Below are positions 152 through 28,128 of a stretch of DNA of 32,000 nt, one piece after another. This DNA is from Pelagibacteraceae bacterium AG-430-E20. GTDB taxonomy: Bacteria; Pseudomonadota; Alphaproteobacteria; Pelagibacterales; Pelagibacteraceae. The notes beneath the pieces are model-generated. The model saw nothing but the letters and a program-made list of their open reading frames with translations. It had not been told where the DNA came from and did not search any database. The stretch is from contig QCOF01000004.1 of assembly GCA_003209915.1 (NCBI GenBank), forward strand, positions 43,149-75,148, given 5' to 3'. Position numbers and translations under genes: made by a program. How positions within the stretch are numbered: position 1 is the stretch's first letter; every line of letters starts with the position of its first letter.

Positions 152-184
152 TTTAACAAAAGTGTAACAAATCTGTAATATTAA
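152..184 (+). promoter_or_regulatory. Candidate Pho box plus -10 of the pst operon
   Basis: TTTAAC (152), TGTAAC (163) and TGTAAT (174) are direct repeats spaced exactly 11 bp. TATTAA (179-184) lies 10 nt after the second repeat. The same composite geometry recurs at 11549, 13643, 15414 and 26609. Confidence 0.6.
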
Positions 185-1278: not shown

Positions 1279-1303
1279 TAAGTTTGGTTATCAAATAGAA
1301 ATT

Positions 1304-1331
1304 AAGGGGTCTTTTTAGACCCCTTTTTTTT
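1304..1331 (+). terminator. Rho-independent hairpin (attenuator) between pstS and pstC
   Basis: AAGGGGTC-ttttta-GACCCCTT is a perfect 8-bp GC-rich stem followed by a T run. It lies 26 nt after the pstS stop and before the pstC start. Confidence 0.75.
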
Positions 1332-1364
1332 AGAAAAGTGTAAAGTCAACTTAAAGGGGATTCA

Positions 1365-5477: not shown

Positions 5478-6161
5478 ATGTCAGCACATGTTTTTATTGC
5501 TGAAGATGAAACACCAATAGTAACTTTATTAAAATACAATTTAGAAAAAGAGGGCCATAAGGTAAGTTTTTCTGAAAATGGAGAGGAAGCACTTAAATTA
5601 ATTAAAGATAAGCAACCTGATTTAATACTTTTGGATTGGATGCTGCCAGATCTTTCTGGAGTGGATCTTTGTAAAAATTTAAAGAAGGATAAAAAATTTA
5701 GTGATATACCAATAATAATGCTAACTGCTAAAGGCGAGGAAGCAGATAAAATTAAAGCATTTGACACAGGTGCAGACGATTATGTGACAAAACCGTTTAG
5801 TCAAAAAGAACTTAATGCTAGAATAAAATCTCTCCTAAGAAGGTCTAAACCTCAATCTTCAGTGGACGTTGTGGAATTTACTGATTTAAAAATAGATAGA
5901 GTAACAAAACGTGTCTACAGAAATAATAAAGAAATATCCTTAGGACCAACTGAATTTAAATTATTAGATTTTTTTATTAAAAACCCTAAAAGAGTTTATT
6001 CACGAGAACAACTTTTAAATAATGTTTGGGGTGAAAATATCTATGTAGAGTCTCGAACGGTTGATGTTCATATAAGAAGATTGAGACAAGCTATAAATAT
6101 AGAAAAAACTAAACCATTAATAAGAACTGTTAGATCGGCAGGTTATTCTTTAGAGTCCTGA
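5478..6161 (+). CDS. phoB: OmpR-family phosphate response regulator PhoB
   Basis: Receiver domain (FIAEDE, LLDWMLPDLSG, MLTAKG) plus winged-helix output (RTVDVHIRRLR, RTVRSAGY). It lies directly after phoU. No sensor kinase gene is present in the window. Confidence 0.94.
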   Translation: MSAHVFIAEDETPIVTLLKYNLEKEGHKVSFSENGEEALKLIKDKQPDLILLDWMLPDLSGVDLCKNLKKDKKFSDIPIIMLTAKGEEADKIKAFDTGADDYVTKPFSQKELNARIKSLLRRSKPQSSVDVVEFTDLKIDRVTKRVYRNNKEISLGPTEFKLLDFFIKNPKRVYSREQLLNNVWGENIYVESRTVDVHIRRLRQAINIEKTKPLIRTVRSAGYSLES

Positions 6162-11537: not shown

Positions 11538-11581
11538 TGTAATAAATTTGTAATATTTTTGTAACATTAATGAAACAATAA
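11538..11581 (+). promoter_or_regulatory. Candidate multi-repeat Pho box plus -10 upstream of phnX
   Basis: TGTAAT (11538), TGTAAT (11549), TGTAAC (11560) and TGAAAC (11571) are all spaced exactly 11 bp. CAATAA (11576-11581) lies 10 nt after the third repeat. The array begins 2 nt from the start codon of the divergent TPR gene. Confidence 0.6.
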
Positions 11582-12478: not shown

Positions 12479-13156
12479 TCACCTATTGAAAAGCATTTTT
12501 TTAACCACAAATATTGCTAATATTGCACCTAGTAATTCTGCAATAATAAATAAAGGTGTATTTAAATAATTGATACCAGTAAATGTGTCTGTAAAGGTTC
12601 TGGCTATAGCAACGGCAGGATTTGCAAATGAGGTTGATGAAGTAAACCAGTATCCTGCGGTTATGTAGAATCCAACACACGCAGCGGTTACAACTTTTCC
12701 ACTTTTCATTGATCCAAAAATTACTAAAATTAATCCAAACGTAGCTATTATTTCTGCAACAAATATATAAATACCATTTCTAGTTTTTGATGATAATTCA
12801 TATATAGGTAATTCAAAAAAAAAATTCGCTAATCCCACACCTACAAGGCAACCTGATATTTGTGAAAAAATATAAATATGAATTAATTTAAATTTTAGTT
12901 TTCCTGTAAAAACCATACTTAAACTCACAAATGGATTAAAATGAGCTCCTGATATATCAGAAAACACTGTTATAAGAACAAATAAACCTGCTCCTGTTGC
13001 AATTGTATTTGCTAATAACATAACTGCAAAATCGTCAGTAAGATTTTGAGCCATTATACCAGAACCAACAACTATCATCACTAGGAAGCAACTACCTAAG
13101 AATTCACTATAGATTATTTTTTTTTTGCTATTTTTCATAATTTTTAATCCATTCAT
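12479..13156 (-). CDS. MIP-family channel (aquaporin/aquaglyceroporin), candidate arsenite channel
   Basis: 225 aa, six TM segments, two half-helix boxes SGAHFNPFVS (NPF variant) and FANPAVAIAR. It overlaps the arsC 3' end. ATG at 13138 is an alternative start. Confidence 0.85.
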   Translation of the reverse strand: MNGLKIMKNSKKKIIYSEFLGSCFLVMIVVGSGIMAQNLTDDFAVMLLANTIATGAGLFVLITVFSDISGAHFNPFVSLSMVFTGKLKFKLIHIYIFSQISGCLVGVGLANFFFELPIYELSSKTRNGIYIFVAEIIATFGLILVIFGSMKSGKVVTAACVGFYITAGYWFTSSTSFANPAVAIARTFTDTFTGINYLNTPLFIIAELLGAILAIFVVKKMLFNR

Positions 13157-13583
13157 TAATTCTAGTTTCTAGTTTAGAATAAGTTTTATGTATTTCTAAT
13201 GAAATTAGTTCTTCTTTATTTGTTTTTTCACTATTTTCTAATTCATTAATAATATGAACAGGATCTTCAATATCCCAATGTATTATTTTTTCTGGAGATG
13301 GCCACACCGGACAAACTTCATTACTAGCATTGTTACATACAGTAAATACCTGGTCAAATTTTGTTTTTTCATCTAAAAATTTATTGAAGTTTTTTGATGA
13401 TAGATTTTTTGTTTCAAAATTATTTTCATTAAGATACTTGATGACATATTTATTAATTATTCCAGATGGTTTGCTACCTGCACTATAACCAGCAAATTTA
13501 TCTTTGTGATATTTATTAACCACACTTTCAGCTAATATGCTTCTATGAGAATTTCCTGTACAAACAAATAAAAGTTTTTTCAT
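13128..13583 (-). CDS. arsC: Arsenate reductase, LMW-PTPase (thioredoxin-coupled) type
   Basis: P-loop LFVCTGNSHRS (C-x5-R-S) plus a downstream Cys pair (TVCNNASNEVCP). 151 aa. Confidence 0.87.
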   Translation of the reverse strand: MKKLLFVCTGNSHRSILAESVVNKYHKDKFAGYSAGSKPSGIINKYVIKYLNENNFETKNLSSKNFNKFLDEKTKFDQVFTVCNNASNEVCPVWPSPEKIIHWDIEDPVHIINELENSEKTNKEELISLEIHKTYSKLETRINEWIKNYEK

Positions 13584-13642
13584 TGTTAACTTTTATAAAT
13601 ATAAATAATTTTTGCTAGAGTTATTGATGTTTAAATCGAAAT

Positions 13643-13675
13643 TGTAACAAAACTGAAACATTAGTAATTTAATAA
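13643..13675 (+). promoter_or_regulatory. Candidate Pho box plus -10, leaderless geometry (PhnZ-like gene)
   Basis: TGTAAC (13643) and TGAAAC (13654) are 11 bp apart. A 10-nt spacer follows, then TAATAA (13670-13675), which ends 6 nt before the ATG at 13682. Confidence 0.55.
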
Positions 13676-13681
13676 ATTATT

Positions 13682-14233
13682 ATGCATACGATTTCTAGCA
13701 TTAATAAATTATTTAAAATTATAGAAAATATTGGGTCTGATAAACAATATGGAAACGAAAATGTTTCACAACTTGAACATGCAATTCAATGTGGATTATT
13801 GGCAAAAAAAAATAATGAGAGTGATTTTTTCATTACTGCTGCTTTGTTTCATGATATTGGCCACCTAATTATCAATGATAAAGAGTCTATAAAAAAAGGA
13901 ATAGATAAAAAACATGAAAACTCTGGATCTCTTTTTCTATCTAAATTTTTCCCTGATGATGTTACAAAATTAATAAAAGGACATGTTCCGGCTAAAAGAT
14001 ATTTGGTTTATTGTGAAAAAGATTATTATGAATCTTTATCTATTGCTTCAAAACAAAGTTTAGATGTACAAGGAGGAAGTTTTTCCAAAGAGGAAGCAAA
14101 CGAATTTATTAAACAACCTTTTATGCAAGATGCAGTTAGGTTAAGAAAATATGATGATCTTGCTAAAATTGAAAATTTAGAAATTCCAAATATAAATTAT
14201 TTTTACAAACACGTAGAGAGAAGCTTTAAATAA
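13682..14233 (+). CDS. phnZ: HD-domain diiron oxygenase, PhnZ-like (C-P bond-cleaving family)
   Basis: 183 aa. Metal-ligand pattern QLEH, FHDIGH, KKHE, KGHVPAKRYLV and KYDD appears colinear with PhnZ as I recall it (QLEHSLQCA, LLHDLGH, GHVAAKRYLV). The QYGNE stretch has the same Y-x-x-E spacing as the PhnZ substrate-contact residues, from memory. Confidence 0.72.
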   Translation: MHTISSINKLFKIIENIGSDKQYGNENVSQLEHAIQCGLLAKKNNESDFFITAALFHDIGHLIINDKESIKKGIDKKHENSGSLFLSKFFPDDVTKLIKGHVPAKRYLVYCEKDYYESLSIASKQSLDVQGGSFSKEEANEFIKQPFMQDAVRLRKYDDLAKIENLEIPNINYFYKHVERSFK

Positions 14234-15398
14234 ACTTTTTTTTGTTTAAAAAAATTGCTGTTACGTTACCAAAAATTGCTAAAACAAAAAATACAAATAT
14301 TAACAAATCATATCCTCCTACATTCCATACCAACGAACCAATCCATGGACCAGCAATACTACCAATCATATATTGTAAAGCTAAAATACCATGAATATTG
14401 CCAAAGTTTTTTTGGCCAAAAGTATCATTTTGAACCAGAGGTTTTAAAATAGCCATACTGCCATATGCTGAACTATTAAATAAAACAAATAAAAATGCTA
14501 AGTAATGATTAATATTTATAAAGTATAAAAATATCATTCCAACTACCATCGAGTAAAAACAAATTACAAATAATTTTAAATTTGATTTATCACTTCCATA
14601 TATCATAACTAAAATTCTACCTATTACTTGTCCTGGTCCAAACAGAGATGCTGTTAATACAGCTTGGGATAGGCTCATGCCTTTTTCCTGCAACATTGGA
14701 ATTACATGAGTTGTAATAGCACCAATATTAAATCCAATAACAAACAATGAAAAACTAAATAACCAAAATCTAAAATCTTTAAGTATTATTTTAATTTTTG
14801 AATTTTGATCTGTTTTCTTTTCAATTTTTTTAAATTTTTTTATAATTATATTTTTGAAACCAAAATAATTAGCTGGTGAACTAATCAATATATTTAATAT
14901 TCCAAAAATAAATACAGTAAATCTCCAGTCATATTGTTCTGTTAAATAAGTAGCAGTAGGAAATGTGTATGTGCTTGCAAATCCAGCAAATAAAGTAATT
15001 ATTGCAATAGATGTTTTGGCCTTTGATTTTAAATTAATAGTAATGACACTAAAAAGCATCGTATAAAGACAGCCACCCGAGGTTGCACTTACAAGTATCC
15101 ATGCAACTAAAAATTCAGTGTATGTGTTTACTAAGGATAGATAGATTACACTTAATCCCAGCAATATTGGACTTACCCACATCATAGGAAAACTAAGATT
15201 TTTATCAACAAACTTACCAAGAATGGGTAACAATAAACTATGTACAACCAAGCCTAGAGAATAAATAAAAGTTAAATTATTCCTTGAAATACTAAGTTCA
15301 TTTTCCCAAGTTAGCAACAACGCTGAGAACAGATACATACAACTGCTGTAACAAAAGGTAACTGATATACCTATTAAAAATGCAGACAAATATTTCAC
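14226..15398 (-). CDS. MFS transporter (unknown substrate)
   Basis: 390 aa with about 12 predicted TM helices and a central hydrophilic loop (KKFKKIEKKTDQNSK). GTG start. Its 3' end overlaps the PhnZ-like gene by 8 nt, convergently. Confidence 0.8.
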   Translation of the reverse strand: MKYLSAFLIGISVTFCYSSCMYLFSALLLTWENELSISRNNLTFIYSLGLVVHSLLLPILGKFVDKNLSFPMMWVSPILLGLSVIYLSLVNTYTEFLVAWILVSATSGGCLYTMLFSVITINLKSKAKTSIAIITLFAGFASTYTFPTATYLTEQYDWRFTVFIFGILNILISSPANYFGFKNIIIKKFKKIEKKTDQNSKIKIILKDFRFWLFSFSLFVIGFNIGAITTHVIPMLQEKGMSLSQAVLTASLFGPGQVIGRILVMIYGSDKSNLKLFVICFYSMVVGMIFLYFININHYLAFLFVLFNSSAYGSMAILKPLVQNDTFGQKNFGNIHGILALQYMIGSIAGPWIGSLVWNVGGYDLLIFVFFVLAIFGNVTAIFLNKKKFI

Positions 15399-15413
15399 AA
15401 ATTTTTTTATTTC

Positions 15414-15446
15414 TTTAACATTTTTTTAACAAAAGTAAGTTAATAG
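15414..15446 (+). promoter_or_regulatory. Candidate Pho box plus -10, leaderless geometry (secreted orphan)
   Basis: TTTAAC (15414) and TTTAAC (15425) are 11 bp apart. A 10-nt spacer follows, then TAATAG (15441-15446), which ends 6 nt before the ATG at 15453. Confidence 0.55.
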
Positions 15447-15452
15447 ATTATT

Positions 15453-15875
15453 ATGAATAAAATCCTAATCTCATTTATATTAACTTTATCCACAATTTCT
15501 ATTACTCAAGCTGACAATCATGCTAAAATAACAGAGCAACAAGCAGGCAGTAGTTATTCACAAAATACTGAGGATACATTTAAAAATGAAATAGGGAATT
15601 GTGAAGACCCTGGCGTTCTTATGTTAAGAGCTACTGTTAAAAATGATATTTCAAGATCTAGTCCCGAAAAAGCATCTGAGGCAGAAGCATTAATGAAAGA
15701 GGGTATGAAATTGTGTAATGAAAATAGAGTTTTTGAGGCAAAACTAAAATTAGAAGACGCTAAAACAACTGCCCGTGCAGGATTGGTAGACGGAGAAGAT
15801 CCATCCGTAACTAAAATTGTTGCTGAAAATAATGAAACACCAAAGGAAGAAAAACCATGGTGGAAATTTTGGTAA
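15453..15875 (+). CDS. Small secreted acidic protein, no recognised family
   Basis: 140 aa with a signal peptide (ILISFILTLSTISITQA), two Cys, a helical Glu/Lys-rich body and an aromatic C-terminus KPWWKFW. The ORF fills the spacer exactly. Confidence 0.55.
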   Translation: MNKILISFILTLSTISITQADNHAKITEQQAGSSYSQNTEDTFKNEIGNCEDPGVLMLRATVKNDISRSSPEKASEAEALMKEGMKLCNENRVFEAKLKLEDAKTTARAGLVDGEDPSVTKIVAENNETPKEEKPWWKFW

Positions 15876-20053: not shown

Positions 20054-20172
20054 ACCAGTTTATGCATCTCATTTTTTGAGAAAATGTTAAAATTTTATTA
20101 ATAAAATTTATAAGTTTTGTTTAGTAAATGTTAAAATAAAACCTCAAGTAGAAAGTCTAGTTTTTTATCAAT

Positions 20173-20883: not shown

Positions 20884-20929
20884 AAAATTTTAATAAATAA
20901 TTTATTGAAATTTTTTTTAATTTTGTTAC

Positions 20930-20945
20930 TTGTCTAGTTGTATAG
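20930..20945. promoter_or_regulatory. Candidate PhnF (HutC-type) operator
   Basis: Tandem TTGTCTAG-TTGTATAG in the phnF/phnG divergent spacer. The core GT(C/A)TAG resembles HutC-family half-sites (GTCTAGAC type). GTCTAGTT recurs at 20155-20162 upstream of phnC. Confidence 0.35.
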
Positions 20946-20949
20946 TATT

Positions 20950-26572: not shown

Positions 26573-26608
26573 AATTCAACTTATAATACTTATATAAATT
26601 TTCTCTAA

Positions 26609-26641
26609 TTTAAAATATTTGTAACAATTCATCTGTAATAA
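26609..26641 (+). promoter_or_regulatory. Candidate Pho box plus -10, leaderless geometry (phnM)
   Basis: TTTAAA (26609) and TGTAAC (26620) are 11 bp apart. A 10-nt spacer follows, then TAATAA (26636-26641), which ends 6 nt before the ATG at 26648. Confidence 0.45.
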
Positions 26642-26647
26642 AAGTTG

Positions 26648-27784
26648 ATGCATGAATATATTTTAAATAATGCCATGATAATTAAAAAGGATGAGATTAT
26701 TCATGGTCATATAAGGATAAAAGATAACAAGATTATCGATATAAGTAGTGGATTAACTAATAACAAAACTTCAATAGACTGCGAAAAAGATTACATCTCT
26801 CCAGGATTGGTTGAATTACATACTGACAATCTTGAAAGACACATGACACCAAGACCTAAAGTTTCATTTCCAGTAGAAAATGCAATTTTATCTCATGATA
26901 GAGAATTAGCATCTGTTGGAATAACTACAGTTTTTGACGCATTGAGAGTTGGCTCTATTGAAAAAACAGGAAAATATAAAAAATATGCAAAAAACTGTTC
27001 AGATATAATTTCAAATTTTAAAAAGGATAATATTCTCAAGATTGATCATAAAATACATTTAAGAGCCGAAACATGTTCAGAGAATTTGATTGATGAATTA
27101 GATGAATACAATGAAACTCACGATGTAAAACTGATTAGTATTATGGATCATACACCAGGTCAGCGGCAATTTAGAGTTATAGATAAGTATAAAGAATACC
27201 TATCAATTAAACATGGTATGACAGAAAATGAAATGGAAATTCATTTTGATCACTTAAAAAATCTCCAAAAAAAAAATAGCAAGAAACACATAGATAGAAT
27301 TCTAGAATTTAAATCTTCATATGATTGTATTTTAGCTAGTCATGACGACACTACAAAAAATGACGTACATAACTCAAATAAATATGGTGTAAAGTTAGCT
27401 GAATTTCCAACAACATTAGAAGCAGCCAAGACTTCAAAGGAATATGATATTAAAATTATGATGGGTTCTCCTAATTTAATGAGAGGTGGCTCACACTCTG
27501 GTAATATATCAGCAAAAGAGCTTTTAGAAAATGATTGTCTAGATATTTTAAGCTCAGATTATATTCCATCCTCATTAATTATTTCTGTTATTAAATGGGG
27601 TTTAGAAATTGATAATCTTCCGAAAGCATTTGCAGCAGCTAGTCACGCTCCATCTTTAGCTACAAATTTAAATGATAGAGGTTTAATTGACAATAACAAA
27701 AGAGCAGATTTGGTAAGGTTTAAAATTTACCAAAATTTACCTGTTGTAAAAAATGTTTGGTCAAATGGATACCAAGTAAGCTAA
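26648..27784 (+). CDS. phnM: Amidohydrolase-family PhnM (ribose 1-methylphosphonate 5-triphosphate diphosphatase)
   Basis: VELHTDNLE metal-binding start, IMDHTPGQRQF, LASHDD, LSSDY. About 378 aa. ATG at 26648 is preferred over TTG at 26645. Confidence 0.9.
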   Translation: MHEYILNNAMIIKKDEIIHGHIRIKDNKIIDISSGLTNNKTSIDCEKDYISPGLVELHTDNLERHMTPRPKVSFPVENAILSHDRELASVGITTVFDALRVGSIEKTGKYKKYAKNCSDIISNFKKDNILKIDHKIHLRAETCSENLIDELDEYNETHDVKLISIMDHTPGQRQFRVIDKYKEYLSIKHGMTENEMEIHFDHLKNLQKKNSKKHIDRILEFKSSYDCILASHDDTTKNDVHNSNKYGVKLAEFPTTLEAAKTSKEYDIKIMMGSPNLMRGGSHSGNISAKELLENDCLDILSSDYIPSSLIISVIKWGLEIDNLPKAFAAASHAPSLATNLNDRGLIDNNKRADLVRFKIYQNLPVVKNVWSNGYQVS

Positions 27785-28020
27785 AATATTCCTGTTGTAT
27801 AAGAGTATTTAATTATACCTGCTATCATTATCGGTATTTGTAAAGAAAAATTTGTTAATAATGGTTTATCCTTTGTAATAGTGCCAACGATTGTCCAACC
27901 AATTATACCTAAGCTGTGTGGTATCATGCTGTAAGGATAGTAATCCAAATAAAAAGTTAATATACCTAAAAGTGTTAATACTGTACTTGTCCATTTTAAT
28001 ACTCTGATATTTGTAGTCAT
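27781..28020 (-). CDS. Small 3-TM membrane protein, no recognised family
   Basis: 79 aa with three hydrophobic segments. A strong SD precedes it (AAGGAGAAAA-ATG), which is unusual here. It lies downstream of and co-directional with znuA. Confidence 0.5.
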   Translation of the reverse strand: MTTNIRVLKWTSTVLTLLGILTFYLDYYPYSMIPHSLGIIGWTIVGTITKDKPLLTNFSLQIPIMIAGIIKYSYTTGIF

Positions 28021-28128
28021 TTTTCTCCTTAATATTTTTTAAGTCTATTATCGTTTTAATAAACAGTAATATCATATTAAAGATTTGTTAAAATTAATTT
28101 TAATTAATGCTTTGAATAAACTAACAAA

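Follow-up and report, generated by a model that had tools for sequence, protein, structure and literature searches.

Candidate PhoB-dependent promoters set directly against start codons in a SAR11 phosphate and phosphonate island

Three genes of a SAR11 (Pelagibacteraceae) phosphate and phosphonate island are preceded by the same compact arrangement, in which two direct repeats, a 10-nt spacer and a TA-led -10 hexamer occupy the 39 nt before an ATG. The island lies in a 32,000-nt stretch of Pelagibacteraceae bacterium AG-430-E20 (assembly GCA_003209915.1, contig QCOF01000004.1, positions 43,149 to 75,148), here called the window, and the three sites stand upstream of a gene for a PhnZ-like protein (site a), a gene for a secreted orphan (site b) and phnM (site c). 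The repeats, T(G/T)TAA(C/T)-N5-T(G/T)TAA(C/T), are very probably a lineage-specific Pho box of the PhoB type, and the transcription start site (TSS) of the three genes probably lies no more than about 3 nt from the start codon; for the two statements to hold jointly we give a probability of about 0.6.

Comparisons were made with 42 genome loci, all from Pelagibacteraceae/SAR11 single-cell genomes, whose PhnH is 88-100 % identical to that of the window. Promoter conservation at sites a-c was measured over 36-37 relatives, and pstS was compared across 80 metagenome loci (PstS identity 64-99 %). Spacer DNA amounts to 1217 nt with a GC content of 19.6 %.

Results

Architecture of the three sites

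The 39 nt upstream of the ATG codons at 13682, 15453 and 26648 align without gaps, exactly in the sequences and at the coordinates given by an earlier sequence-only reading of the window. Pairwise identities are 28/39, 22/39 and 23/39, and sites a and b agree at 17 of the final 19 positions, as that reading had noted. All three carry the half-sites it described, T[GT]TAA[CA] at -39 and T[GT][TA]AAC at -28, 11 bp apart, and then a 10-nt spacer and TAATA[AG] at -12 to -7 from the ATG. The hexamer TAATAR, which had been taken as a shared element, is present at the three sites of the window, but relatives keep only T-12 and A-11 invariant.

All elements of the three sites lie on the plus strand. 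At site a the box TGTAAC-AAAAC-TGAAAC (13643..13659; 21.6 bits with the position weight matrix, PWM, described below) precedes the gene for a phosphonate HD-domain oxygenase of the PhnZ-like type (13682..14233), with a predicted -10 TAATAA at 13670..13675, 10 nt past the box, and the A of ATG 13682 as the predicted TSS. Site b (TTTAAC-ATTTT-TTTAAC, 15414..15430, 13.4 bits), which is at the same time a perfect CtrA-type TTAA-N7-TTAAC, is followed by a predicted -10 TAATAG at 15441..15446 and by the orphan gene (15453..15875), whose ATG is the predicted TSS and whose product of 140 residues has an N-terminal signal peptide. Site c (TTTAAA-ATATT-TGTAAC, 26609..26625, 13.0 bits) has its predicted -10 TAATAA at 26636..26641 upstream of phnM (26648..27784), with ATG 26648 as the predicted TSS. 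Each of the three genes heads a divergent pair, the spacers measuring 98, 54 and 75 bp for sites a, b and c, respectively.

The start codons are fixed by in-frame stops, by the signal peptide of the orphan and by profile alignments. An in-frame TAA or TAG at -9, inside the -10 hexamer itself, closes the frame at all three sites. Residues 7-181 of the PhnZ-like protein align with positions 4-178 of TIGR03276 (199.7 bits), residues 1-377 of PhnM align with positions 1-378 of NF011984, and variation in the first nine codons of phnM falls mainly at third positions. ATG is the start codon in the window genes and in all orphan and phnM orthologues. No Shine-Dalgarno sequence (SD) occurs within -20 to -1 of the three genes; clear SDs are found elsewhere in the window, at phnD, phoU, pstC, phnH and phnI. 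With a -10 at -12 to -7 from the ATG, the canonical spacing between this element and a TSS, transcription should begin on the start codon or 1-3 nt from it.

Enrichment of the repeat motif and identity of the regulator

The two-repeat pattern occurs five times in the window against 0.89 expected, every time on the plus strand and in the spacers upstream of pstS, phnX and the three flagged genes, and the G-containing form TGTAAY-N5-TGWAAY occurs five times against 0.09. For the complete composite, three matches compare with 0.00 in shuffled sequence, a test that is circular because the pattern was taken from the sites themselves. When the PWM is built solely on pstS promoters taken from other SAR11 metagenome contigs, the window contains 11 matches at or above its threshold of 12 bits (1.07 expected), all upstream of genes of the island. 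Ten of these lie wholly within spacers, against 0.08 after each spacer had been shuffled, so that AT-richness does not explain the motif. Besides sites a-c, the matches fall upstream of pstS (152 and 163; 25.3 and 22.9 bits), phnX (11538, 11549 and 11560; 17.2, 12.8 and 12.3 bits), phnC (20102, minus strand; 13.8 bits) and an unannotated 79-residue protein gene treated below, and in the phnF/phnG spacer (20878; 12.2 bits). The score of site a is about the best of 200 null simulations.

Among the 80 metagenome loci the pstS promoters share T(T/G)TAA(C/T)-A(A/T)(A/T)(A/T)N-T(G/T)TAA(C/T), situated a few nt past the stop codon of the upstream gene, and TGTCAT occurs exactly in some SAR11 sites. 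In some lineages, for example at locus L107, the orthologous boxes of pstS and pstC are made of G-less half-sites (TTTAAT, TTTAAC), and site b is acceptable as a Pho box because such orthologous boxes exist. A scan of the whole window with Rfam returned no family at its gathering score; known RNA elements therefore do not account for the sites.

The presumed regulator is encoded within the same window at 5478..6161 (plus strand). Its earlier identification as PhoB stands: the protein scores 331 bits with the TIGR02154 equivalog profile of NCBIfam (cutoff 296.2), its DNA-binding domain aligns to the E. coli PhoB structures 3T72, 1QQI and 1GXP, and its recognition helix RTVDVHIRRLR is identical in E. 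coli PhoB. Induction of carbon-phosphorus (C-P) lyase in strain HTCC7211 is cited, not gene by gene, in PMC6852614.

Conservation and box-to--10 geometry

In relatives, the non-consensus fraction of the Pho boxes is 0-3 %. The box of site a is invariant in 37 relatives apart from one C/T position, that of site c is invariant in 36, and that of site b departs from consensus at 1 % compared with 14 % at third codon positions. Non-consensus bases make up 0 % at T-12 and A-11 of sites a-c, 12-14 % at third codon positions and, for positions -6 to -1, 26 % at site a, 3 % at site b and 19 % at site c.

E. coli Pho promoters have 10 bp between the box and a -10 of the form TAN3T/A (PMC1906773). This rule, on which the sequence-only reading had relied, holds for SAR11: 10 nt from the end of the second half-site, five of six promoter families (pstS, pstC, PhnZ-like, orphan and phnM) always have TA, at a background TA frequency of 0.136 in the spacers; the sixth family is that of the 79-residue protein gene, with CATAAT in most relatives. 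The remainder of the hexamer varies. In pstS it reads TATTAA in close relatives and TAAAAT, TATAAT, TAGAAT or TAAAAC in distant clades; the PhnZ-like gene has TAATAA, TAAAAG, TAAAGT or TAAAAT, the orphan TAATAG, TAATAA, TATTAA, TAAAAA, TAAGAA, TAAAAT or TAAAGA, phnM TAATAA, TATTAA (most relatives) or TATAAA (some), and pstC of a distant clade TAAACC, TAAACA, TACATA or TAATGA. A generic sigma-70 scan was also tried. It found no enrichment (14 matches, 15.6 expected), and its single match at site b places the -10 on the ATG; as the start codon would thereby be deleted, that reading of the site was rejected.

The distance from box to start codon is 39 nt in four unrelated gene families and about 70 to 145 nt for genes led by an SD. 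A scan of viral contigs with a degenerate box returned chance matches only and hence serves as a negative control: none of 126 chance occurrences of box plus TA had an ATG-initiated open reading frame at +39.

pstC of a distant clade

The fourth of these families is pstC. In lineages whose PstC is 61-66 % identical to that of the window, pstC has a Pho box of its own past the pstS terminator, and its ATG lies 39 nt from the start of the box in 7 distinct sequences and 42 nt in 3. All ten box-led variants begin with ATG and none has an SD; the SD-led orthologues start with TTG (12), GTG (3) or ATG (6). As an independent case, pstC strengthens the prediction of leaderless transcripts. Nine further distinct SAR11 sequences upstream of pstC contain neither SD nor box. 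The pstS-pstC junction (loci L107-L123 compared with window positions 1279-1364) thus takes alternative architectures across SAR11: in the clade of the window the terminator leads into an SD with TTG or GTG as start codon, in the distant clade it leads into an internal Pho box and an SD-less ATG, and a third form is without SD or box.

Other Pho-box promoters of the island

The sequence-only reading had assigned the same composite, with ordinary leaders, to pstS and phnX. For pstS (152..184, plus strand) the box and the leader are indeed present, with half-sites at 152 and 163, a third at 174 and a predicted TSS at about 191, but the hexamer 10 nt past the box is TATTAA (179-184) rather than TAATAR. 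This promoter is conserved in 76 metagenome loci. The leader carries the strong SD AAAGGA (232-237; GAAAGGA). The start previously placed at ATG 229 is to be moved to ATG 247, since most homologues align from residue 7, the SD is conserved and PstS of HTCC7211 has 344 residues (PMC12421899). A palindrome upstream of the pstS box, AACTAAAAAGTT, includes the stop codon of the upstream gene and is not claimed as a regulatory element.

Upstream of phnX (11538..11576, plus strand) the repeats and a long leader, of more than 100 nt to ATG 11682, were confirmed, but there are four in-phase half-sites, TGTAAT, TGTAAT, TGTAAC and TGAAAC at 11538, 11549, 11560 and 11571, and no clear TA hexamer follows 10 nt downstream. 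These repeats, equivalent to two tandem Pho boxes, are kept in relatives with 74 % PhnX identity, and they adjoin the start codon of a divergent TPR gene (ATG 11536, minus strand).

One of the best scores in the window (20.7 bits) belongs to a minus-strand box at 28076..28092 preceding an unannotated gene for a predicted membrane protein of 79 residues (27781-28020, minus strand), which has an ordinary leader with the strong SD AAGGAG(A). The protein has no Pfam or NCBIfam match; its gene is present in about 27 relatives and the Pho box is conserved.

Divergent spacers and further features

In the spacer 15399-15452 (54 bp), the orphan promoter must share its space with that of a divergent MFS gene, which starts at GTG 15398 (ATG in several relatives) and whose automatic gene call of 370 residues is probably too short. 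A plausible -35 of the MFS gene (TTGTTA) is the reverse complement of the second Pho half-site of the orphan, and through this overlap PhoB binding could switch on one gene while occluding the other. Full-length homologues of the orphan are all at least 85 % identical and nearly all 140 residues long, with one weak 28 % match besides. The protein looks restricted to SAR11, homologues with names being from Pelagibacterales.

Sites a and b, 17/19 alike in the window over their 3' halves (13663-13681 and 15434-15452), agree there at about 13/18 in other lineages, and the N-terminus of the PhnZ-like protein depends on lineage (MHTISS as against MDNM or MDIK). Together these two features suggest patchy exchange or convergence at the junction of promoter and start. 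Distant homologues of the PhnZ-like gene (45-48 % identity) lie within operons of other organisms and are uninformative on the site a promoter.

TA-led hexamers at or near -12 to -7, without SD, also precede other first genes on the minus strand (13584-13600, 20884-20895, 26573-26590), namely arsC (TAAAAG), phnF (TATTAA, invariant) and the DUF1045 gene (TATTAT or TATTAA at -16 to -11). Very short or missing leaders may accordingly be general in SAR11 rather than specific to Pho genes.

Two further elements concern the phosphonate operons. A direct repeat TTGTCTAG-TTGTATAG at 20926-20949 is invariant in 40 relatives and overlaps the start region of phnG; it is likely an operator of PhnF (GntR family), and the start of phnG is probably ATG 20950, not TTG 20938. 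In most relatives (L011, L026 and others) the phnC leader, corresponding to window positions 20054-20100, includes an inverted repeat, GAGGAttaataaaTTCCTC, which would mask the SD and is missing from the lineage of the window.

Overall, the island comprises genes for phosphate uptake and regulation (pstSCAB-phoU-phoB), polyphosphate metabolism (ppk, ppx), phosphonate hydrolysis (phnX) and phosphonate transport (phnCDEE), C-P lyase genes with their regulator (phnF, phnGHIJKLN), the divergent pair DUF1045 gene/phnM, zinc uptake genes (znuABC-zur), an arsenic cluster, and the flagged PhnZ-like and orphan genes. The arsenic-handling set, consisting of a MIP channel (aquaglyceroporin), an ArsC of the low-molecular-weight phosphatase type and an ArsK-like MFS transporter, lies at 12479-15398 inside the phosphate island, which fits arsenate entry through Pst during phosphorus (P) starvation.

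Discussion

Sites a-c are best read as PhoB-activated promoters without a -35 element. Under P starvation, phosphorylated PhoB would bind head-to-tail on the two direct repeats, 11 bp apart, in the -35 region and bring RNA polymerase with sigma-70 to a weak -10 of the form TAN3T/A, beginning 10 bp past the box. At the three flagged genes transcription would then start on, or 1-3 nt from, the start codon, and the leaderless mRNAs would be translated without an SD, presumably through direct recognition of the 5'-terminal AUG by 70S ribosomes with fMet-tRNA. PhoB binding, phosphate dependence, the precise TSS and the way in which the mRNAs are translated are here deduced from sequence.

Several observations weigh against this reading. 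Sites b and c score only about as high as the null maximum of a whole-window scan; the window promoters of phnX and of the 79-residue protein gene lack TA at the canonical spacing, and numerous hexamers end in G or C instead of T or A. At site b, unlike the other two sites, positions -6 to -1 hardly vary. The 42 genome loci have diverged little (about 13 % at third codon positions), which makes constant spacing there only modest evidence. At site a, the +1 codon is GTG in 7 genomes and ACG in one, many genomes read ATGATG, one has the box 1 nt nearer the start (38 nt), and an alternative hexamer, TAATTT at -17 to -12, is likewise invariant. The 42-nt spacing in three pstC lineages would imply leaders of about 3 nt, and the literature searched yielded no SAR11 transcription start data or TSS map.

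Part of this evidence would suit genuine Pho boxes whose mRNAs do have leaders, made from another -10 register or from a start further upstream, inside the divergent neighbour. At site a, for instance, TAATTT would give a leader of about 5 nt, with translation from an A/U-rich, unstructured leader lacking an SD. The invariance of TAATTT, the box-to-ATG distances of 38 and 42 nt and the GTG or ACG at +1 in some genomes all speak for such leaders, as do the nine pstC upstream sequences without SD or box, which suggest that translation of leadered mRNA may often start independently of an SD. However, a -10 only 5 nt past the box breaks the spacing of the other promoter families, a freely variable leader leaves the equal 39 nt of four unrelated families unexplained, and the spacers are merely 54-98 bp long; leadered transcripts are for these reasons considered unlikely. 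Much less probable is that another OmpR-family regulator, such as CtrA, binds the repeats, at least at site b, and places the orphan under cell-cycle or other control. Site b is the only one of the three to fit the CtrA box, which it does perfectly, and its half-sites are free of G and score modestly; yet TTAA-N7-TTAAC is not enriched in the window (4 matches, 2.26 expected), some lineages have G-less half-sites in their orthologous Pho boxes of pstS and pstC, and the orphan lies in the phosphate island amid other box-bearing genes.

The resemblance of the sites could also come from the AT-richness of the spacers, or from a promoter segment that was recently duplicated, with no common regulatory meaning. 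The GC content of the spacers, the near-identical 3' ends of sites a and b and the unenriched sigma-70 scan would agree with such an origin, which nevertheless appears highly improbable given the 10 spacer matches against 0.08 in shuffled spacers, a box far more conserved than adjacent or synonymous positions, the same architecture in pstS and pstC of distant clades, and the negative result with viral contigs. PhoB-activated promoters with the TSS at or next to the start codon thus remain the preferred reading.

Compared with known systems, the SAR11 promoters agree with PhoB promoters of the E. coli type in every feature testable at the level of sequence. In both, a pair of direct repeats with a period of 11 bp stands in for the -35, 10 bp separate the box from a TAN3T/A -10 downstream, the recognition helix of PhoB is identical, and strong promoters carry additional tandem repeats (in SAR11, pstS and phnX). 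To our knowledge, E. coli Pho genes have ordinary SD-containing leaders, whereas three SAR11 genes, or four with pstC of the sister clade, leave no room for one. The half-sites differ as well: the E. coli box reads CTGTCATA(A/T)A(A/T)CTGTCA(C/T), with structures 1GXP for PhoB on DNA and 3T72 for PhoB with sigma4, and relative to its half-site TGTCA(T/C) the SAR11 form T(G/T)TAA(C/T) has A in place of C at the fourth base and allows T at the second.

Alphaproteobacterial Pho boxes exist in Sinorhizobium and Caulobacter, and we know of no description of a fixed fusion of a cyanobacterial or alphaproteobacterial Pho box to a start codon. These boxes, like those of SAR11, are tandem direct repeats upstream of pst and pho genes with a similar TTAAC core, and they differ in regulator lineage and in repeat number (at least three in Synechocystis); the boxes of cyanobacterial SphR consist of CTTAACCT repeats (PMC1906773). 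An earlier bioinformatic study predicted Pho boxes near SAR11 plcP without specifying the motif (PMC4796936). The statement of the sequence-only reading that no Pho-box consensus is described for this lineage therefore holds in that we found none published, but a Pho-box prediction as such does exist. The alphaproteobacterial CtrA box is TTAA-N7-TTAAC. Like the SAR11 repeats, it is a direct repeat of the OmpR-family type, phased at 11 bp and overlapping the -35, but sites a and c, pstS and phnX carry the G typical of Pho boxes.

Leaderless mRNAs are familiar from lambda cI, Caulobacter, Mycobacterium and Streptomyces. Their prediction signature, a -10 at about -12 to -7 from the start, no SD and mostly AUG, is shared by the SAR11 sites except for the GTG or ACG at +1 of site a in some genomes, with the difference that the TSS is here only predicted. 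PMC3160421 cites PhoP-regulated genes of Streptomyces among verified leaderless genes, and a leaderless operon in Alphaproteobacteria is that of Rhodobacter acuR (PMC3017554). Pelagibacter does not appear in two supplementary files from Zheng 2011, and in the literature searched leaderless mRNAs are documented neither for SAR11 nor for PhoB-activated genes of Proteobacteria. The predicted novelty lies in the combination, a PhoB promoter that yields a leaderless mRNA, both kinds being already known separately.

A more far-reaching and tentative proposal, which we regard as doubtful, is that SAR11 reuses the 39-nt unit of Pho box, 10-nt spacer, -10, 6 nt and ATG as a compact promoter-plus-start module. 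If this were true, genes could enter the Pho regulon without any 5' untranslated region, and lineages would exchange an SD-led TTG or GTG start for a leaderless ATG start, as pstC would illustrate. Genome streamlining could drive this, perhaps together with the P cost of RNA during P starvation, and starvation genes of the most abundant heterotroph in the ocean would regularly use leaderless initiation.

SAR11 dominates the P-poor surface oceans, and very little of its gene regulation has been charted. Once validated, a SAR11 Pho box with its TA-led -10 would make the Pho regulon readable from thousands of SAR11 genomes and metagenomes, would flag unknown genes such as those of the secreted orphan and the 79-residue membrane protein as P-starvation genes, and would improve the annotation of gene starts. 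If the transcripts are indeed leaderless, they would show how a streamlined genome accommodates a pair of promoters with their gene starts within 54-98 bp, and would add a major marine lineage to those with leaderless translation.

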